Positions 38,848 through 62,940 of a DNA stretch of 64,000 bases are shown one piece after another. A program made the translations under genes and the position numbers. Source of the DNA: a phage; NCBI GenBank assembly GCA_032691205.1, contig GCA_032691205.1_4541.1, one strand, 5' to 3'. Numbering within the stretch: position 1 is the first letter of the stretch; the number at the start of each line of letters is the position of its first letter. Below the pieces are notes generated by a model that saw only the letters and a program-made list of their open reading frames with translations, ran no database searches and was not told where the DNA came from.

Positions 38848-39114
38848 ATGACAAATACTACATTACATCTTATGCACTCATTGGGCTGGCAAGGCGGCAC
38901 GGTGCACCAGGTAGCAAGCGCAACGGGCTTAAAGGTTGAAACCGTTCTCAACCTATCAGATTATAAGGTCGAGGATAGTTATCAATTACAAAGTTACACG
39001 GGCGGTTTTACCTGGGCGCGTGAAGGTGGGAAAGAAAGCAATATACCACATTGGGGAAAAGGTGATATTCATTTTTGGCTAGGTGTCCTGACCTGGCAAG
39101 AAAACAAAAAATAA
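38848..39114 (+). CDS. hypothetical protein (88 aa)
   Basis: ORF track; RBS AAGGG; isolated plus-strand ORF between minus blocks. Confidence 0.4.
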   Translation: MTNTTLHLMHSLGWQGGTVHQVASATGLKVETVLNLSDYKVEDSYQLQSYTGGFTWAREGGKESNIPHWGKGDIHFWLGVLTWQENKK

Positions 39115-39116
39115 TC

Positions 39117-39145
39117 TTGACAAGCCCAGGGATAGGGCTTATACT
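39117..39145 (+). promoter_or_regulatory. consensus sigma70 promoter TTGACA N17 TATACT
   Basis: Exact -35 hexamer; 17-nt spacer; -10 TATACT. Confidence 0.6.
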
Positions 39146-39151
39146 GTTTTA

Positions 39152-39370
39152 CATACAGAAGAGGAAGCGCCACCCCACGGCGTAAAGGCGGGGCTAACAT
39201 ACCAGGGGCACTGGTTGGAAGGTTGATCGCCGGTAGGCTGGGCGCTATATATTTGTAAAGAAATGTAAAGATAAAATAATCGCTTGCTTTCCTGGCTGGA
39301 TCTGTTATTCTTATTACATGGCGAGGGGACACGGGAGCGCGAGACAAACACCGCCCCTGCGCGTCATTCT
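39152..39370 (+). ncRNA. candidate structured small RNA (GC-rich island downstream of promoter)
   Basis: GC-rich self-complementary segments (gcgccacc..ggcgc; gaggggac..cgcccctgcgcg) with no convincing ORF. Confidence 0.3.
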
Positions 39371-39394
39371 CTAAATGAGAATGATTATCATTTA
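39365..39394. promoter_or_regulatory. palindrome CATTCTC-taaa-TGAGAATG plus Fur-box-like AATGATTATCATT
   Basis: 16 of 19 positions match the Fur-box consensus as I recall it. Confidence 0.3.
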
Positions 39395-39434
39395 CCTTAT
39401 CAAATAAGAATAAATCTCATTTATAAACTTAAAT

Positions 39435-39478
39435 GCGAATCATTATCATTTGCATTTCCATATGAGAACTCTTCTCAT
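39435..39478. promoter_or_regulatory. Fur-box-like site and ATGAGAA-ctc-TTCTCAT palindrome
   Basis: gcgaatcattatcatttgc ... atgagaactcttctcat. Confidence 0.3.
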
Positions 39479-39501
39479 TCTCACCTGCATAAAAATTTTT
39501 G

Positions 39502-39544
39502 TAAACTTTAAATTTTGCTTTTGTACTTTCATTTTTGTAAAAGC
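39502..39544. repeat. direct repeat copy 1 (about 43 bp)
   Basis: taaactttaaattttgcttttgtactttcatttttgtaaaagc. Confidence 0.55.
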
Positions 39545-39639
39545 AAAAAAACTTTAAATACTGTGGGCGCGCAAAATTTTTAAAATTTTCCTTGACTTTT
39601 GAGTTTTGTTTTGTATCTAACATTTTAAGATAATTTTCC

Positions 39640-39679
39640 TAAACTTTAAATTTTGGTTTTCAACTTTCACTTTTGTAAA
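39640..39679. repeat. direct repeat copy 2
   Basis: taaactttaaattttggttttcaactttcacttttgtaaa. Confidence 0.55.
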
Positions 39680-39921
39680 TTCTTAAAAAGTTTAAATAAT
39701 TTGAGGGATTTTTGAGATAATGGATAGTGGGAATTTGATATAACCTTTAATCTTATTAGTAGACCTTCAGGAACCCACCTAGATCGAATCCTAGTGATGC
39801 AAACTGAAAAAGATAAGTGTTTGTATAGGACAAAATAACAGGCTCTCTACGGTGCTGTAGGAGCCTTATTTCTGTGCTACAAAGTGACACCTTTGTTCTA
39901 AAAATGAAAAAAGTTAAAATA

Positions 39922-40464
39922 TCACAAATATCGTCTTTGCGGTATTTTGTCTGGGAAAAGTATTTCGATCAGTTTATTATGATATTTGCCTAAAAGATTC
40001 TGCCCTTTCCAGGTGGCAGGGTTTAGCACCCCTGGTTCATACATCCCCATTCCAATTCCGTAAACCTTATCGTAGGGGCTTGCTTCAACAAACGTTTTGT
40101 ATTGGTAAAGGTGTAAGTCTGCATACAAATCTGGATTCTGTACATATTTCAAGCATAAACCTCGCATAACAATACGCTCACGGTTCTCTTCCCATACATT
40201 GTTATCAAAATCCGACACTGCCCTACCCATACGTTTGTAATAAGCTTGGATCTTCTCATCTTTCCGTATCAAACTATGAGTCAGAATAGCCTGTGCAGTG
40301 TTGTGGTCATTAAAAAGCAAAGCTTTACGCCACATCATATATTGTTCGACACAATTAAATGTCTGATTGTAACCTGGTTCGGTTTCTGTAAAGGGTGCAA
40401 TATACCAATTACTAAAAACATCTTTATGTGAAAAGAAGAATACATAATCATCAGTTATTCGCAT
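39922..40464 (-). CDS. NADAR/YbiA-like (DUF1768) domain protein
   Basis: FFFSHKDVFSNWY, EQYMMWRKALLF, KRMGRAVSDFDNNVWE and EASPYDKVYGIG match the NADAR pattern as I recall it. Confidence 0.65.
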   Translation of the reverse strand: MRITDDYVFFFSHKDVFSNWYIAPFTETEPGYNQTFNCVEQYMMWRKALLFNDHNTAQAILTHSLIRKDEKIQAYYKRMGRAVSDFDNNVWEENRERIVMRGLCLKYVQNPDLYADLHLYQYKTFVEASPYDKVYGIGMGMYEPGVLNPATWKGQNLLGKYHNKLIEILFPDKIPQRRYL

Positions 40465-40675
40465 TTTTCATGCCTTCTAAAACTTTAGCTTGCCCGTCTT
40501 GAAAAGCTTTCATCAGAACTATCTTAAGATTGATTTCCAAACGTTCTTCATCCTCTCTATAACAATCCAACACTGCTTTAAGTTCATCATAGTGGTTCAG
40601 AATAGGTTTAAAGATTTCATGGTCTGCTAAACGTGCCATAGTTTCTCCTTTGTTAATCCATCCACCAGTAGCCAT
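40451..40675 (-). CDS. hypothetical protein (74 aa)
   Basis: ORF track. Confidence 0.5.
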   Translation of the reverse strand: MATGGWINKGETMARLADHEIFKPILNHYDELKAVLDCYREDEERLEINLKIVLMKAFQDGQAKVLEGMKNANN

Positions 40676-41018
40676 AAACTGCGTCTGCGTCGATGAGTTT
40701 GTGTTTGTTGTTCCGCATGTAGTCTAAGATAAGTAGACGTTTATTGTATCTGGAGAGATTATGACCCTCTTTTCCGCCATAGTCAAAATATTTTGCAAGA
40801 TCTTTACACTCAAACAAAATCAGTTCGGGAGTTTCTTCACACTGGTCTGTCTGGTACACTTGACGAATGATCATGTATACATCGTCGTCTTCCGCTAAAT
40901 GCTCTACTGGTCCACATCCAGCAGGAACAAATTCATAGTCCCATCTGATCAGATGTTTCTCTACTGCTTCAAAGAAGTCCATTCTTTCGTTGCGCATAAT
41001 TTGAACGTCAACTAACAT
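40653..41018 (-). CDS. hypothetical protein (121 aa)
   Basis: ORF track. Confidence 0.55.
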   Translation of the reverse strand: MLVDVQIMRNERMDFFEAVEKHLIRWDYEFVPAGCGPVEHLAEDDDVYMIIRQVYQTDQCEETPELILFECKDLAKYFDYGGKEGHNLSRYNKRLLILDYMRNNKHKLIDADAVYGYWWMD

Positions 41019-42472
41019 GTTTCCTCCTCTCTCATTATTCCACCTGCTTGGTTGATAGCACTTAAGACGATAGCCAAATCCTCGCGCAGGAAGGTTTCAC
41101 TATGACCATCTTTCATGTGCAAGCGTTCTACACAGCCAATAGACGGTAGAATCTGATCAGTCTTAGACTTTAGCTTACTCTCTAACGCCCTGCAAGCTTG
41201 GTAGGACGGCAGATCGAACAATGCTATACGGCGCATAGAGTAATTGTTGTTTGCATTCTGCCCTTTGATCCTGATATCACTGTCCTTTGCAATCCCCAAC
41301 TTGTAAGCTCCCGTGTCTTCTCCGTACTCATCAAGAATAATATTGATGTAAAATTCTTGCATATTTCTGTTCTTACAGCCTGGACAACCTTTCCCATTGA
41401 GATAATCGGTAGGTGTGATCGTTTGCTCTCCATGCTCCCTACATAGATATTTAAACTTGCTGTTATTGCTTACCTTATCAATGAATCCTATAAATTGATC
41501 CCCTCGTTCCTGGCAAGCTTTGGTCATACGGTAGGCCCATTGTTCAGGAGTGTAATGATAATATTTAGAACAACGGCAAGGAAGGCCACCCCTTTTCAAA
41601 TGACTCATCTTCATCTCAAATTTATTATCGCATAAGCCTTCTTTACAATAATCATCCTCTGCACATATAGGACATTCTACAGTCCAGTAAACCTGACGAC
41701 CTAATCTATCTACTCTATCGCTACGATAATATTTACGCTCTACATTATCAGGACAAGCTTTTATAAAATCTTCAACATGTTGTTTATCCTCCATTGTATT
41801 CCTTTGTTTCGTCATTTCTCTTTGACAACTGTAGCATCCAGTCCCTTGTTTAGCACTGTTTACAGTGGTAGTGCACCATTGACCATGAACCTTACACTCA
41901 CAAATCAACTTAGTGCGGGAACCGTTCCACGGTTCCACATAGCCTCTAACAATCCAGGGTTTTTCTTTATAAGCTTCTTCTACTTCTTCTTTATGTTTCT
42001 CCCATGCAATCGATGTTCTTTCTCTGTTTGCTTCTCCCATACACTTCCTGCATCCACTCCCGTTTTTCGCAGAAGATATAGAAGTAGACCTCCACTCCCC
42101 ATGTAAAGCACAACAACAAACCAGTTTAGTATTCCATCCTTTCCATTCTCCGTGCCATCCTGTAACAGTCCAAAACTTACCTGCCTGATTGTAAGTGGTT
42201 TGCACTTCTTCTTTATATTGCTCCCAGGTTTTTGATTTGTTTATAGATACTGCTTTACTTATAATCTCCCTACCGCATTCTGGACAACCCCTCCCTAGTT
42301 TAGCGGTATTTATGCTTGTTGTTTTCCATTCTCCATGCAGAGCACAGATGCATCTAAGTTTAGTTTTATTGCCGTTCCACGGCTCAATATAATCTACAAC
42401 AGTCCAAGACTTACCTTGATAAGCTTGTTTTATATCTGTTTTATATTGTTCCCAAGTGACTATTTTTGGCAC
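41012..42472 (-). CDS. zinc-ribbon tandem-repeat protein with C-terminal T5orf172/GIY-YIG-like domain (putative)
   Basis: Three-plus repeats of W.V..Y.EPWNG..TKL.C.C..HGEW.TT....AK.G.GC..C; C-terminus FYINIILDEYGEDTGAYKLGIAKDSDIR. Confidence 0.6.
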   Translation of the reverse strand: MPKIVTWEQYKTDIKQAYQGKSWTVVDYIEPWNGNKTKLRCICALHGEWKTTSINTAKLGRGCPECGREIISKAVSINKSKTWEQYKEEVQTTYNQAGKFWTVTGWHGEWKGWNTKLVCCCALHGEWRSTSISSAKNGSGCRKCMGEANRERTSIAWEKHKEEVEEAYKEKPWIVRGYVEPWNGSRTKLICECKVHGQWCTTTVNSAKQGTGCYSCQREMTKQRNTMEDKQHVEDFIKACPDNVERKYYRSDRVDRLGRQVYWTVECPICAEDDYCKEGLCDNKFEMKMSHLKRGGLPCRCSKYYHYTPEQWAYRMTKACQERGDQFIGFIDKVSNNSKFKYLCREHGEQTITPTDYLNGKGCPGCKNRNMQEFYINIILDEYGEDTGAYKLGIAKDSDIRIKGQNANNNYSMRRIALFDLPSYQACRALESKLKSKTDQILPSIGCVERLHMKDGHSETFLREDLAIVLSAINQAGGIMREEETC

Positions 42473-57098: not shown

Positions 57099-57971
57099 AT
57101 GAAAGATTTGTACCAAGATGTTTTTTCTTTTTTAGATCGCACTTCAGAAACATACACTAGAGAGAATGCAAACAAACCTTCCCACCTTGTTAACACGCAC
57201 AGGGATCTCTTGGCGGGGATTTTAAGCAAACATATGGCAATGACACAGATACTGCCAAAAAACTTGTCAGAGTGGCATACAGAAGGTTTTGGACATATTC
57301 ACGACTTGGATTATCTGCTCTCTCCTCTTACAAACTGTTGTCTTGTTAATTATCAAGATATGTTAGAGAATGGTTTTAAGATCGGTGCTGCACAGATAGA
57401 AAAACCAAAATCTATTGGAGTAGCTACTACAGTGCTAACTCAAATCATCCAAGCTGTTGCCTCCAGTCAGTATGGAGGTCAGACGTGTGCTCACATTGAT
57501 AAAGGTCTTAGTCCTTATGTTGAAGCCAGTTTCCTTAAAAACATGGAGATAACCAAACGTCGCTACGGTTGTTATGCAAGGAAAGAAGCCCTAGAAATGA
57601 CCGAACAAGATGTATATGACGCTATGCAAACTCTCTTGTATCAGGTTAACACTTTAATGAGTGTTAATGGACAATCTCCTTTTATTACAATCAGTATGGG
57701 TCTGGATACCTCTGTTTTTGGCAGAATGATCACAGCTAACTATCTTAAAGTGCATAGTAACGGTCTAGGCAAAGATCATGTAACGCCTGTATTCCCTAAA
57801 GTTATTTTCTTTTTACAAGAAGGTGTTAACATGAAACCTAGTGATCCTAACTACGACCTTAAGCAACAAGCTTTGGCATGTTGTGCTGATCGTATTTATC
57901 CAGATTTTATTTCTGTTCCTTTGAACAAAGAAGTTACGGGATCAGCAGATGGTACCGTTACGAGTATGGGT
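57099..57971 (+). CDS. nrdD: anaerobic ribonucleoside-triphosphate reductase, exon 1
   Basis: NrdD-like N-terminal translation; exon ends at ...VTSMG (codon ggt ending in T) before the in-frame stop. Confidence 0.8.
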
Positions 57972-58740
57972 AAACTATAACTGCTCATGTAAAATCTGCC
58001 TAAACGGGGGAACTCTCAACGAGACAATCCCGTGCTAAACGTAACAGAACTCCCAACACAGAAGAAGGGGGTACTGATATGAGAAAACAAATTCGTGATT
58101 TTGAAGGGTATGAAATTGACGAGCTTGGAAATGTTTATTGTACCAGGTATAAGGATGAAAGAATCCTTCGCTCGTGGGAAGAAATAAACACAGGATACCA
58201 ACTTGTCAGAATACGTAAAAACAAGAAAACTGTTTGCTTTCGGGTGCACAGACTTGTAGCTGAAGCGTTTTTACCCAATCCAGACAATTTACCTTATGTG
58301 AAGCATAAAGGTGACAATAGGAAAGACAACAGTGTATACAATCTTGAGTGGGGATCTTGTCCAGACAACACGCAAGAGGGTTACGATAATAACTGTTATG
58401 CTTTCTATACAAGGTGTCACAGTGTAAAAGCTACTCATAAGGCTACTGGTGAAGTTTTTTACTTTAAAAGTCTGAGATGTTGTGCTGACGCTTTAGGGTT
58501 GGACAGAAAAAGAATATCTGCAATCTTAAAGCGAGGAGCACCAAATAATTATGATTATGAGTTCTGTTACGAAATGCCTAACGACTAGCTGTGATGAATG
58601 TAGCAGCGTAGGGTGTAAGCCTATGACACCCCAAATGGTAGACATGCTTTAAGCATGAAGATATAGTCTGATCTGCATGGTGACATGCAGCAGCACGTAA
58701 TGGTGCGGGAGCGGCCTTGCGAGCCACTTTGAACATAATG
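57972..58740 (+). mobile_element. group I intron in nrdD (boundaries inferred)
   Basis: Splits the conserved ...TSMG/CRSFL... junction; ends in G; contains an HNH endonuclease ORF. Confidence 0.6.
58079..58588 (+). CDS. intron-encoded HNH homing endonuclease
   Basis: YEIDELGNVY (NUMOD4-like) and HRLVAEAF..VKHKGDNRKDN..NLEW (HNH_3-like). Confidence 0.8.
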   Translation: MRKQIRDFEGYEIDELGNVYCTRYKDERILRSWEEINTGYQLVRIRKNKKTVCFRVHRLVAEAFLPNPDNLPYVKHKGDNRKDNSVYNLEWGSCPDNTQEGYDNNCYAFYTRCHSVKATHKATGEVFYFKSLRCCADALGLDRKRISAILKRGAPNNYDYEFCYEMPND

Positions 58741-59682
58741 TGTAGAAGTTTCTTGTCGTACTATGCCACCGAACAAGGAGAAAAATATGATGGACGATTC
58801 AACCTTGGAGTAGTTTCTATCAACTTGCCTCTGATTGCTGCGGAAGCGAGAAGTAAAGGAGAATCTTTCACCGATCTTCTTAATAAACATATGGAGATAG
58901 CCTACGATGCTCACATGTTACGTGTAAACCGTATCAGACATACCAAAGCATCGGAAAACCCTATTCTTTTCATGGAAGGGGCTTTAGCGCGTTTAAATGC
59001 CAACGATGAAATTGGTGCTTTGTTTGAAGGTGGTTATGCTTCTATTAGTATTGGTTATGTAGGTCTTGCCGAAGCTTTGGAAATCCTTTATCCAGAGGAA
59101 AAAGATAAAAAGGAACTAGGTAAAAACATTCTGCAACATATGAAAGATGTGTGTGCTGTGTTTAAAGAACGATCTAAGTTGGCATTTAGTCTTTATGGAA
59201 CTCCAGCAGAATCCTTGTGCTATAAATTTGCAACAGCTTTAAATGAAAAATATCCAGGTCTGGTAGAAAGAGACTATCTTACTAATTCTTTTCATCAACC
59301 TGTAGGGTTGGTAACAAATCCTTTTGAAAAATGGGATTATGAAGCAGGTTTTGCACAGATTAGCAATGGTGGTAACATAAGTTATGTCGAAACACCAAAC
59401 TTAAAGAATAACTTAGAAGCTTTGGAGACTTTAGTAGACTACGCTTATGAACATATTCACTATTTTGGTATTAATCAGCCCGTGGATCAATGCTTTAAGT
59501 GTGGTTTTCATGGAGAATTTAAGGCAACGGCTAAAGGGTTTGAGTGTCCTGATTGTGGCAACCATGAAGAAGAAACTATTTCTGTAGTTAGACGTGTATC
59601 AGGGTATCTTTCTGCCCCTAATTCACGGCCTTATAACAAAGGTAAAATGCAGGAAGTTTTGCAAAGGGAGAAACATCTTTGA
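58741..59682 (+). CDS. nrdD: anaerobic ribonucleoside-triphosphate reductase, exon 2
   Basis: C-terminal Cys cluster CFKCGFHG..CPDCG and glycyl-radical motif RVSGYL. Confidence 0.8.
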   Translation, partial: CRSFLSYYATEQGEKYDGRFNLGVVSINLPLIAAEARSKGESFTDLLNKHMEIAYDAHMLRVNRIRHTKASENPILFMEGALARLNANDEIGALFEGGYASISIGYVGLAEALEILYPEEKDKKELGKNILQHMKDVCAVFKERSKLAFSLYGTPAESLCYKFATALNEKYPGLVERDYLTNSFHQPVGLVTNPFEKWDYEAGFAQISNGGNISYVETPNLKNNLEALETLVDYAYEHIHYFGINQPVDQCFKCGFHGEFKATAKGFECPDCGNHEEETISVVRRVSGYLSAPNSRPYNKGKMQEVLQREKHL

Positions 59683-60976: not shown

Positions 60977-61633
60977 ATGACAATAAAACATATTTCTTTT
61001 GATGTATGGAATACTCTTATTTCTGCCAATCAAAACTATGCAGATGCACGTACGCACACTATTGCTACATATGGTAGAATGTCTGAACGTGCGGCAAAAG
61101 AAGCATATAAAGATGCCAAAGAAATTATGGATAATGCTGCACTAAATGGGTGTGCAGAAGGTGTAGCATATGCATGGAATATGTTGGGAAGAAAGATAGG
61201 TTTAACCCCTGTAGAATCTGCACAAATGCGTTTTGAGTGTGAGCAATGGTTTCTTAAATTTCCTCCACATATCGCTTTAGATTTGCCAGTTTGTTTGCTA
61301 TACTTGTCTGGTAAATATGATCTTAGTATTAAAAGCAATACTAATTTTATATCTGGGGATATTTTGCGTCGTGCTTGTATGTTCGACAGTTGGAATTGTT
61401 TTGAATTTATGCATTTTTCAGACGAACATCTGTTATGTAAACCAGATCCTAGATTCTTTGTTAGGACCGCCACATATTCAAGCATTCCTTTGAAGGCTGA
61501 AGAGATTTTACATGTTGGGGACAGCGAAGAATTTGATGGTAAATGTGTTGACATAGGGATTAACTTCTGTCATATTAAGAACCCTAACGATTTACTAGAG
61601 AAACTTAAAAGAGGAGAAATTGTAAATGCGTAA
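60977..61633 (+). CDS. HAD-like hydrolase with non-canonical motif I
   Basis: FDVWNTL (second Asp replaced by Trp), KPDP, GDS. Confidence 0.55.
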   Translation: MTIKHISFDVWNTLISANQNYADARTHTIATYGRMSERAAKEAYKDAKEIMDNAALNGCAEGVAYAWNMLGRKIGLTPVESAQMRFECEQWFLKFPPHIALDLPVCLLYLSGKYDLSIKSNTNFISGDILRRACMFDSWNCFEFMHFSDEHLLCKPDPRFFVRTATYSSIPLKAEEILHVGDSEEFDGKCVDIGINFCHIKNPNDLLEKLKRGEIVNA

Positions 61634-62453
61634 TCAAACTCAAATTTTTGCAAATAAATTTGATGACCTGGAAACTGCTACTTTTGATATCAAAGACTAT
61701 TCAAAATTGAAATTTGGTTGTAACCAAGCTGCGCGTCGTATGGGTAAAGAATTGGCACTTCAGTTTTTTGCTCAAGTGGCAATGAAACATATTGGGGAAC
61801 AATTTGTTATCATCCCTTCTCCTTATAACCATGTGCACAATGCTGCAACAATGATGACAGATCATTTTATTAATTACTTTAATATGTTGCAAGCACAATA
61901 TGATCAAGGTCGTTCAGCAGAACTGGATATTATTCATCGTAAAGTTAGCTATATCAACGATTATGGTTTCTTGGATAAAGCTAGTCGTAAGAAACTTATT
62001 GATGGGGATACATTCTACTGCAACAAAGAATTCTGGGGTGATAAGAAGCTTGTGTTCATTGATGATGTAAATATCACCGGAACTCATGAAGACAAACTGA
62101 TTGAGATTCTTGATGAAAATCAAGTTAAAAATGATGTTTACTTCTTGTATTTTGCAAAATATGAAGGTAATCAAGCAGATACTGAAGCTAAACTGAATTT
62201 TAACTACATCAATACACCAGAAGCGTTTGTTAAAATGATTAATGAAGAACGTGATGCACAGTGTCTTGTTCGTCCTATTAAGTATCTTATGGGCCAAAAT
62301 CACGAAGACTTCAAAATCATTCTTAGCCAATTGCCACACTACTATGTAGAGCAACTTTTCTTCGGATGTTTGGGAGAAGGTTACAACCGAATTTCAAAGT
62401 ATGCTGAAAACTTTGAATTCTTGGATCGTTACACAAAACAACACATTCTGTAA
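61626..62453 (+). CDS. type I phosphoribosyltransferase-fold protein (putative)
   Basis: KKLVFIDDVNITGTHEDKL resembles the PRPP-binding loop. Confidence 0.55.
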   Translation: MRNQTQIFANKFDDLETATFDIKDYSKLKFGCNQAARRMGKELALQFFAQVAMKHIGEQFVIIPSPYNHVHNAATMMTDHFINYFNMLQAQYDQGRSAELDIIHRKVSYINDYGFLDKASRKKLIDGDTFYCNKEFWGDKKLVFIDDVNITGTHEDKLIEILDENQVKNDVYFLYFAKYEGNQADTEAKLNFNYINTPEAFVKMINEERDAQCLVRPIKYLMGQNHEDFKIILSQLPHYYVEQLFFGCLGEGYNRISKYAENFEFLDRYTKQHIL

Positions 62454-62466
62454 TAAGGAGCTAAAA

Positions 62467-62940
62467 ATGCTTAAAATGAAAACAGGTAATCTTATTGATG
62501 CCGCTAAAGCAGGTGAAGTAACTGTTATTGCTCATTGTTGCAATTGTATGTGTAATATGGGAGCAGGAATTGCTCCGCAAATTAAACGAGCATTCCCTTA
62601 TGCATATGCGGCAGATTTAGACACAATGGCTGGTGATCAAAGTAAGTTAGGTTCTTTTAGTTTAGGGGTGCCAGACGAACAATCAGACCCTTTGGTATAT
62701 AATCTATACGGGCAATACCGTTACGGATACAATGCTAAAGGTCGTCAGTTGGACTATGATGCACTTTACGATGCACTAATAGCTATGGCTAATGATTTGC
62801 TTCTCCGTGACCAAAAATGTAAGATAGGTTTACCTATGATTGGAGCGGGACATGCCGGAGGTAATTGGGCTATCATCCAAGTGATGATTGAAGAAACTTT
62901 AGTAAAAACAGGTCACGATGTGACTATTTATAAACTTTAA
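62467..62940 (+). CDS. macro domain protein (ADP-ribose binding/processing)
   Basis: Start ATG 62467 after AAGGAG; VIAHCCNCMCNMGAGIA and GLPMIGAGHAGG. Confidence 0.7.
   Translation: MLKMKTGNLIDAAKAGEVTVIAHCCNCMCNMGAGIAPQIKRAFPYAYAADLDTMAGDQSKLGSFSLGVPDEQSDPLVYNLYGQYRYGYNAKGRQLDYDALYDALIAMANDLLLRDQKCKIGLPMIGAGHAGGNWAIIQVMIEETLVKTGHDVTIYKL

Follow-up and report, generated by a model that had tools for sequence, protein, structure and literature searches.

An orphan NADAR gene of a phAPEC8-like phage that probably encodes a guanine ADP-ribose eraser of the AdfN^Bas60 lineage

We analysed a stretch of phage DNA of 64,000 nucleotides (the window) and found that it carries a gene for a NADAR protein of 180 residues. 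With a probability of about three in four, this protein would be a stand-alone NADAR glycohydrolase of the AdfN^Bas60 lineage that removes guanine ADP-ribose from phage DNA and acts against the DarTG1 system. This function was proposed because the orthologue AdfN^Bas60 neutralises DarT1 and rescues phages on DarTG1 hosts; the enzymatic activity, the substrate and the role in infection of the window protein are what we infer from this orthology. Phage NADARs that act against DarTG1 were published in 2025, so the idea itself is no longer new, and the window protein is an expected new member of that family.

Results

Source of the window and features of interest

The window is from a Phapecoctavirus, a phAPEC8-like myovirus of the subfamily Stephanstirmvirinae. 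Over 3.5 kb surrounding the NADAR gene, the sequence shared 96-99% identity with ZCKP1, nieznany, ESCO13, Schickermooser, phAPEC8_ev052 and others, and the NADAR protein was 100% identical to gp254 of EF1-1. At an identity of at least 80%, the gene was found in about 71 phage records. A literature search returned no paper tying Phapecoctavirus to NADAR or DarTG. The features discussed below are as follows.

39922-40464, minus strand: coding sequence of the NADAR (AdfN-type) protein, from the list of open reading frames; ATG start, 180 aa
40473-40478, minus strand: AGAAGG resembling a Shine-Dalgarno sequence, 8 nt 5' of the NADAR ATG, from sequence inspection; putative function
39829-39866, minus strand: candidate intrinsic terminator, from RNA folding; putative function
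40150-40400, minus strand: mosaic (recombinant) patch in the NADAR gene, about codons 21-110, from sliding-window identity
62467-62940, plus strand: macrodomain gene, Tk.4/AdfM-like, of the DarG/SCO6735/TARG1 group, from homology; predicted function

The NADAR gene is an orphan at the end of a probable operon

The open reading frame had exactly the coordinates given in the initial annotation, to which we add the strand (minus). All three segments that had been named there as NADAR hallmarks were present in the translation, namely FFFSHKDVFSNWY (aa 9-21), EQYMMWRKALLF (aa 40-51) and EASPYDKVYGIG (aa 127-138). The ATG start was supported by three observations: the AGAAGG upstream of it, a 14-nt overlap between the NADAR start and an upstream ORF of 74 aa (40451-40675), and the N-terminus MR(I/V)TD, which was conserved in the alignment of NADAR homologues. 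The AGAAGG is situated within the 3' end of the 74-aa ORF, and the overlap suggests translational coupling of this ORF to the NADAR gene.

About 55-95 nt 3' of the NADAR stop codon we found the hairpin GGCUCCUAC-AGCACC-GUAGAGAGCC (39866-39840), followed by the U-run UGUUAUUUUGU (39839-39829). Folding of the minus-strand RNA from 39790-39925 gave a minimum free energy of -33.1 kcal/mol (z=-3.75), and none of 200 shuffled sequences was equally stable. A simple consensus terminator scanner made no call at this hairpin. We regard 39829-39866 as the probable intrinsic terminator of a minus-strand operon. As the hairpin and U-run lie 3' of the stop codon and the start overlaps the preceding ORF by 14 nt, the NADAR gene appears to close an operon of small genes on the minus strand. 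A scan for sigma-70 promoters was uninformative, with 26 sites against 22.5 expected.

No tRNA gene was found around the NADAR gene or in the gap of about 800 bp downstream of it. In the same regions no Rfam family reached its gathering threshold, and the only hit was at chance level (E=0.2). Pfam detected no ART domain in the three genes upstream or in the two closest ORFs downstream, and no ART (a cognate DarT) was listed near the NADAR gene in annotated relatives. The NADAR gene of the window is a phage-encoded orphan, with no cognate DarT alongside.

The protein has the NADAR fold and an intact active site

The initial annotation had proposed a NADAR/YbiA-like gene and named the NADAR/DUF1768 profile as a way to check it. 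This identity was borne out by strong profile matches, by the NADAR fold and by conserved catalytic residues. PF08719 was matched with E=7.8e-36 (124.2 bits; cutoff 35.1) over residues 11-161 of 180 and profile positions 3-154 of 163, and it was the sole Pfam domain. NCBIfam TIGR02464 scored 113.1 bits (cutoff 73.7), and in PHROGs the protein matched phrog_1017 (E=7.5e-52), a family of unknown function. PDB entry 8BAU was matched with E=3.8e-15 from the single sequence and with 1.4e-34 from a profile. Membership of NCBIfam DS32_2, 'NADAR family anti-phage protein', was rejected (17 bits; cutoff 240).

The AlphaFold2 model, built from an alignment of 53 homologues, had a pLDDT of 95.4 and a pTM of 0.89. 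Two PDB structures were matched by the model, 8BAU (TM 0.78, E=1.2e-9) and 2B3W (TM 0.66), and nothing else. The best match, 8BAU (28% identity), shows ADP-ribose bound to the NADAR of Phytophthora nicotianae (PnNADAR), a stand-alone protein of a eukaryote with unknown physiological role that lacks the Stephanstirmvirinae insertion described below.

Schuller et al. 2023 (PMC11543638) listed the residues of 8BAU that contact ADP-ribose, and the catalytic glutamate and lysine of the family are E43 and K50 in PnNADAR and E88 and K95 in E. coli C7. When these positions were transferred with HMMER alignments, the ADP-ribose contacts mapped one-to-one, and the E43/K50/E125 triad of PnNADAR corresponded to E40/K47/E127 of the window protein.

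PnNADAR E43, window E40: catalytic/ADP-ribose residue
PnNADAR K50, window K47: catalytic/ADP-ribose residue
PnNADAR K75, window K77: ADP-ribose residue
PnNADAR R79, window R81: ADP-ribose residue
PnNADAR Y84, window F86: ADP-ribose residue
PnNADAR D86, window N88: ADP-ribose residue, the only position counted as changed
PnNADAR W89, window W91: ADP-ribose residue
PnNADAR R93, window R95: ADP-ribose residue
PnNADAR E125, window E127: catalytic/ADP-ribose residue
PnNADAR D130, window D132: ADP-ribose residue
PnNADAR W133, window Y135: ADP-ribose residue

E40, K47, K77, W91, E127 and D132 were invariant in alignments of 42 and of 53 homologues. R81 and R95 also mapped to 8BAU, and they grouped with E40, K47, K77, W91 and D132 as invariant or nearly so among the 53 homologues. 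Because the residues of the ADP-ribose site map onto 8BAU and stay invariant in homologues, the window protein holds all features known to be needed by a catalytically competent NADAR. The PF08719 match, the confident model and the conserved ADP-ribose and catalytic positions together make it an unambiguous member of the NADAR superfamily.

GenBank records name the NADAR gene variously: some give 'hypothetical protein' or 'COG3236', whereas EF1-1, ESCO25, AV125 and others have 'GTP cyclohydrolase II'. The reading as GTP cyclohydrolase II comes from database labels only, and these derive from RibA/RibD-NADAR fusion proteins (COG3236). Pfam gave NADAR alone in the window protein, with no cyclohydrolase II domain at E<=1, and the model matched NADAR structures only. 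Since the protein holds no such domain, we rejected the label as an annotation artefact and give this reading no weight.

The protein is the syntenic orthologue of AdfN^Bas60

Johannesman et al. 2025 (Nat Commun 16:1598; PMC11825919) described gp30.3 of phage T4 (AdfN^T4) as a NADAR DNA ADP-ribosylglycohydrolase that is necessary and sufficient against DarTG1, and they tested two further, unrelated phage NADARs, AdfN^Bas32 and AdfN^Bas60. Each of the two neutralised DarT1 in uninfected E. coli and enabled RB69, T5 and Bas25 to plate again on hosts with DarTG1, but gave no help against DarTG2. The evidence for AdfN^Bas60 is from ectopic expression only. In the same work, AdfN^Bas60 grouped with bacterial NADARs that are neither YbiA nor DarG1.

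Bas60, Bas61 and Bas62 are phi92-like phages, now placed in Justusliebigvirus, a sister genus of Phapecoctavirus in the Stephanstirmvirinae. AdfN^Bas60 is bas60_0111 (QXV83846.1) of Escherichia phage PaulScherrer/Bas60; we equated the two through the annotation and through the protein identity of 98.4% among Bas60, Bas61 and Bas62, whose NADARs (bas60_0111, bas62_0106) are 98-100% mutually identical. Over 172 aa, the window NADAR and bas60_0111 shared 59% identity (E=2e-69). Relatives of the window phage and Bas60 also shared the gene order, with an AAA/FtsH-like ATPase, 1-3 variable genes, the NADAR gene and then about 800 bp without good ORFs.

A search of 5.8 billion proteins returned a top tier of 83-98% identity, which comprised the Phapecoctavirus alleles, and a second tier of 52-60%, whose members came from contigs of phage size (about 140-157 kb) and included the Justusliebigvirus form of 183 aa. 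All else was at 48% identity or less. In a neighbour-joining tree the two tiers formed one clade that includes the window protein and AdfN^Bas60. Among the NADARs sampled, a 7-residue insertion (window aa ~66-72, ...EKxQAYY) was found in that clade only. The identity of 59%, the gene order, the common clade and the common insertion identify the window protein as the syntenic orthologue of AdfN^Bas60.

The two proteins are alike in being stand-alone phage NADARs of about 180 aa with identical catalytic residues in the same genomic slot, and they obtained similar profile scores (PF08719, 125 bits for AdfN^Bas60 and 124 for the window protein; PADLOC PDC-M42C, 117 and 121 bits). They differ in genus (Justusliebigvirus versus Phapecoctavirus) and in 41% of their residues. 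In AdfN^Bas60 an insert lengthens the N-terminal hairpin (APKYNNSITSS) by about 7 residues, and the C-terminal tails of the two proteins are unlike.

The lineage differs from YbiA, DarG1 and the T4-type NADAR

We compared the window protein with three other kinds of NADAR. E. coli YbiA (2B3W) belongs to the same superfamily, has a glutamate at the equivalent catalytic position and hydrolyses guanine-ADP-ribose (G-ADPr) in vitro. A YbiA-type housekeeping N-glycosidase, which destroys reactive intermediates of the riboflavin pathway as directed overflow or damage control, would agree with the name of TIGR02464, 'riboflavin biosynthesis intermediates N-glycosidase', and with E127, as the de Souza/Aravind scheme defines YbiA-like NADARs by a glutamate at this position. 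The window protein was, however, 29% identical to E. coli YbiA over 96 aa only, and the family profile was much closer to PnNADAR (1.4e-34) than to YbiA (2.4e-15), a preference of about 62 bits. The published grouping of AdfN^Bas60 also argues against this function, as does the genomic context: riboflavin (rib) genes were absent from the annotated neighbourhood, the protein is single-domain with no rib fusion, and such an enzyme would be of no obvious use to a lytic phage. YbiA itself is a housekeeping protein from a LexA-controlled operon and gave no rescue from DarT1 in vivo (Cihlova et al. 2024). We consider a YbiA-type function of the window protein very improbable.

DarG1 proteins, such as those of E. 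coli C7 and G. lovleyi, have the same fold and catalyse the same reaction, the reversal of guanine-N2 ADP-ribosylation by DarT1. DarG1 is encoded beside DarT1 and has an N-terminal extension; its catalytic aspartate (D171 in E. coli C7), used in place of the conserved glutamate, lies two positions ahead of it. The residue two before E127 in the window protein is F125. A reading as DarG1 was rejected, as the gene has no ART neighbour and the NADAR domain starts at residue ~8-11, which leaves no N-terminal extension.

AdfN^T4 has the same proposed job as the window protein, that of an orphan phage NADAR clearing G-ADPr and countering DarTG1. The two proteins had no detectable pairwise similarity (BLASTP E=4.6). 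AdfN^T4 belongs to Pfam PF08010, Phage_30_3 (237 bits), which the window protein did not match, and it has a histidine at the position of E127. The closest kin of AdfN^T4 is DarG1, and its full activity needs the T-even context, whereas AdfN^Bas60 works alone. A T4-type NADAR was rejected on the missing PF08010 match and on E127. By sequence, the window protein is placed in the AdfN^Bas60 lineage and is not a T4-type NADAR, a DarG1 or a close relative of YbiA, and this placement agrees with the grouping of AdfN^Bas60 among non-YbiA, non-DarG1 NADARs.

Proposed reaction and its likely target

If the window protein acts as AdfN^Bas60 does, a DarTG1-type system of the host, or another guanine-specific DNA ADP-ribosyltransferase, would put ADP-ribose on the N2 of guanine in phage DNA, and this modification would block phage replication and transcription. 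The NADAR protein would then bind the ADP-ribose, with the pyrophosphate held by K47, K77, R81, W91, R95 and D132, the adenine stacked on F86 and the distal ribose between E40 and E127. Cleavage of the N-glycosidic bond between the ribose and N2 of guanine would give back unmodified guanine and lift the block. The predicted target is the lesion and not the toxin; the variant of DarT1 would therefore be irrelevant, and the thymidine-ADP-ribose left by DarT2 would not be acted on.

The reversal of DarT-type guanine ADP-ribosylation suggested in the initial annotation gained support from this orthology, as the 59% identical syntenic orthologue AdfN^Bas60 neutralises DarT1 (PMC11825919). The rescue of DarT2 toxicity proposed there as a test of the NADAR gene was aimed at the wrong target. 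Every NADAR tested was inactive on thymidine-ADP-ribose, and AdfN proteins do not counter DarTG2 (PMC11825919; Cihlova et al. 2024); the NADAR gene therefore belongs with DarT1/DarTG1 and not with DarT2.

YbiA and T4 gp30.3 were active on G-ADPr in vitro and gave no rescue from DarT1 in cells (Cihlova et al. 2024), and in vivo efficacy is thus not guaranteed by the chemistry in vitro. At 59% identity, the specificity of the window NADAR in vivo could differ from that of AdfN^Bas60. NADARs also hydrolyse G-ADPr on RNA, and some hydrolyse cytidine-ADP-ribose (C-ADPr; PMC12945103), so the range of natural substrates may exceed the DarT1 lesions, which may not be the sole or main natural substrate of the window NADAR.

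A broader or different ADP-ribose eraser, whose main substrate is something other than DarT1-modified DNA, partly overlaps with the anti-DarT1 function. Its substrates would be small immune signals derived from ADP-ribose, or guanosine- or cytidine-ADP-ribose that other ART toxins or defences produce on RNA or DNA. It is favoured by the finding that C-ADPr is removed by NADAR-family and YbiA-type enzymes and RNA G-ADPr by all families (PMC12945103), and by the argument of Iyer et al. 2022 (PMC9503650), who saw soluble ADP-ribose derivatives as the main targets of Macro, SLOG, Nudix and NADAR proteins in phages and proposed such signals for most phage NADARs. The 121 bits on PADLOC PDC-M42C, the NADAR component of a candidate defence system other than DarTG, point the same way, and homologues of the window NADAR are very common in large myoviruses of Gram-positive hosts (719 phage records). 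However, the tested orthologue AdfN^Bas60 was sufficient against DarT1 and DarTG1, a soluble signal has been demonstrated as substrate for no NADAR in the literature examined, and the NADAR gene had no SLOG, Nudix or NAD-salvage neighbours. We regard this broader function as unlikely.

Conservation of the residues that bind ADP-ribose would also suit a non-enzymatic inhibitor that binds ADP-ribose and blocks an NADase defence effector. Such a precedent is the inhibition of Retron-Eco1 by a phage NADAR without catalysis, as Carabias et al. 2024 are cited by Johannesman et al. to have found. In the window protein and its homologues, however, none of the catalytic residues (Glu, Lys and Glu) varies and purifying selection acts on them, a constraint that mere binding would not call for, and the orthologue AdfN^Bas60 acts on DarT1 lesions. 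A purely binding role is, in our estimate, extremely improbable, and the removal of guanine ADP-ribose from phage DNA is the function that we prefer.

The NADAR gene is mosaic and under purifying selection

The sliding-window identity of the NADAR gene was examined against four phapecoctaviruses. In the patch at 40150-40400, the nucleotide identity to alleles of the phAPEC8 type was 74-82%, and the flanks were 98-100% identical. The patch had dS=0.96 and dN=0.13, giving dN/dS=0.13; for the NADAR gene dN/dS was 0.13-0.14, even across this old recombinant patch, indicating purifying selection. Between the window allele and that of Schickermooser there were 16 amino-acid differences, all within aa 6-90, the span in which the EF1-1 and phAPEC8 allele types differ, and none changed a catalytic residue. 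The clade-specific insertion and residues beside the ADP-ribose site fall within the divergent part (aa 34-90). Diversifying selection in an arms race was rejected on the values of dS and dN/dS. These values, with no catalytic change, mark the patch as an old allele that was exchanged by recombination while purifying selection acted on it.

A macrodomain gene accompanies the NADAR gene in the genome

The initial annotation had also pointed to a macrodomain gene at 62467-62940, with which the phage might carry both known classes of DarT-reversing activity. The gene proved to be real, and its coordinates agree with those annotated in ESCO25. The Pfam Macro match was marginal (22.8 bits; cutoff 22), but further comparisons clearly showed a macrodomain. 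The product was 37% identical to T4 Tk.4 (E=2e-21), and it matched the PADLOC DarG model (E=1.6e-10) at profile positions 1-144 of 329 alone; T4 Tk.4 gave the same footprint and score. It corresponds to the macro part of DarG only, without the DarT-binding C-terminal domain. Its best PDB matches were SCO6735 (5E3B, 1.1e-12), DarG of T. aquaticus (5M31, 9e-7) and TARG1 (4J5R, 3.5e-6). SCO6735, DarG and TARG1 are the three enzymes tabled as reversing thymidine-N3 ADP-ribosylation (PMC12945103). The region of the catalytic lysine of DarG (TKKHW) aligned with YGQYR in the window macro protein, and SCO6735 has IGQHG there; the mechanism of the macro protein may thus be SCO6735-like. We infer that the macro gene is a candidate thymidine-ADP-ribose DNA hydrolase.

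The macro gene is 22 kb from the NADAR gene in a separate operon, where it follows a ComF-like PRTase in the cluster of the anaerobic ribonucleotide reductase. A reading of the macro/PRTase pair as the NAD+ pathway NARP3 was rejected, as NARP3 consists of PnuC and NadR.

According to a 2025 preprint (10.1101/2025.11.20.689424), T4 needs Tk.4, renamed AdfM, to resist DarTG2. Like the window phage, T4 has both a NADAR and the Tk.4/AdfM macrodomain. Since the macro protein resembles Tk.4 and the same pairing occurs in T4, the idea that the phage carries both classes is reasonable and is supported by homology. The pairing differs from that of T4 in that the NADAR partner of the window phage is from another lineage. 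The right toxin for the macro protein is DarT2/DarTG2, and for NADAR it is DarT1/DarTG1.

Discussion

The pairing of a NADAR with a Tk.4-type macrodomain suggests a combination that recurs in unrelated large myoviruses. The Stephanstirmvirinae NADAR clade has its own 7-residue insertion adjoining the ADP-ribose site, and its alleles are deeply diverged and recombining. A tentative extension, which we hold to be possible but rather unlikely, is that this clade is a broad de-ADP-ribosylase of nucleic acids (G-ADPr and C-ADPr, in DNA and RNA) that forms with the Tk.4-like macrodomain a two-enzyme eraser kit. Such a kit would have been assembled independently of T4, because the phapecoctavirus NADAR stems from another NADAR lineage.

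The finding opens no new question. With it, the AdfN^Bas60 lineage extends to a second genus, Phapecoctavirus, and a widespread mis-annotation is corrected: dozens of GenBank records call the gene 'hypothetical protein' or 'GTP cyclohydrolase II'. phAPEC8-like phages are often considered for therapeutic use against avian-pathogenic and multidrug-resistant E. coli and Klebsiella. The probable presence of a guanine eraser (NADAR) and a thymine eraser (macro) in these phages would help to predict their host range on DarTG-positive strains.

Surroundings of the NADAR gene

The region around the gene coding the NADAR protein, a candidate ADP-ribosyl-DNA glycohydrolase (39922-40464, minus strand), contained the following features.

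38848-39114, plus strand: 88-aa ORF
38900-39100: divergent patch within the 88-aa ORF
39115-39921: intergenic gap
40150-40400: divergent patch within the NADAR gene
41012-42472, minus strand: protein of 486 aa in which the CapR homology domain (PF21817) occurs five times

Both divergent patches were sharply bounded and showed 72-82% nucleotide identity to other phapecoctaviruses, against 98-100% in their surroundings; in the patch of the NADAR gene, dS was 0.96 and dN/dS was 0.13. The patches look like recombinational mosaicism.

The AT-rich gap of about 800 bp lies directly downstream of the NADAR gene, and its position was conserved in phages EF1-1, Bas60, and Bas62. No convincing ORF, Rfam family, or tRNA was found in the gap, and several promoter-like hexamers were present on both strands. 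A possible reading of the gap is a divergent regulatory region.

The gene of the CapR-repeat protein, which RefSeq labels "endonuclease", is located two genes upstream of the NADAR one. Its slot was variable among phages: phiWec179, Bas60, and Bas62 had another or a shorter gene there.

Intron-like insert in nrdD

The gene of anaerobic ribonucleotide reductase, nrdD, was split at position 263 of the Pfam NRDD profile.

57099-57980: nrdD, first exon part
57972-58740: insert of about 769 nt
58079-58588: HNH/I-HmuI-like endonuclease ORF, inside the insert
58717-59682: nrdD, second exon part

Comparison with phage ESCO25, which lacks the insert, revealed that the opening codons of exon 2 were recoded in the window. 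A group I intron core was detected in the insert (RF00028, 39.3 bits, E=2.5e-8), with a score under the gathering threshold of 50 for this family. The last base of exon 1 was T and that of the insert was G, which fits the expectation for a group I intron. The insert resembles the nrdD intron of T4.

Phosphoribosyltransferase gene beside the macro gene

The Tk.4-like macro gene was found directly downstream of another gene, with 13 nt between them.

61626-62453, plus strand: ComF-like phosphoribosyltransferase, 275 aa (Pfam PRTase_3, 143.7 bits)

This gene is named "orotate phosphoribosyltransferase" in GenBank. In some Vibrio phages, a homolog of the macro gene adjoins ribose-phosphate pyrophosphokinase. 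The pair in the window could be an ADP-ribose/PRPP-related module.

NADAR homologs in databases

Orthologs of the NADAR gene were repeatedly mislabelled "GTP cyclohydrolase II" in GenBank (EF1-1 gp254, ESCO25, AV125, KMB37, and others), and in a single case, phage Eryne, "DNA methyltransferase". The only near-correct labels were "putative YbiA-like N-glycosidase" in the BASEL phages and a few instances of "NADAR family protein".

Four unannotated records of about 146 kb (MG065639, MG065645, MG065656, and MG065689), deposited as "Campylobacter phage" with C. jejuni as the host, coded a NADAR whose identity to the one from phi92-like Justusliebigvirus phages of E. coli was 98.9%. These records may reflect wrong host attribution or contaminated isolates.

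The window NADAR and AdfN^Bas60, the NADAR of phage Bas60 and a tested anti-DarTG1 factor, each scored about 120 bits with PDC-M42C, a PADLOC model for one component of a candidate defence system that is uncharacterised. These scores indicate that the bacterial side also uses NADARs of such a general type outside DarTG1.
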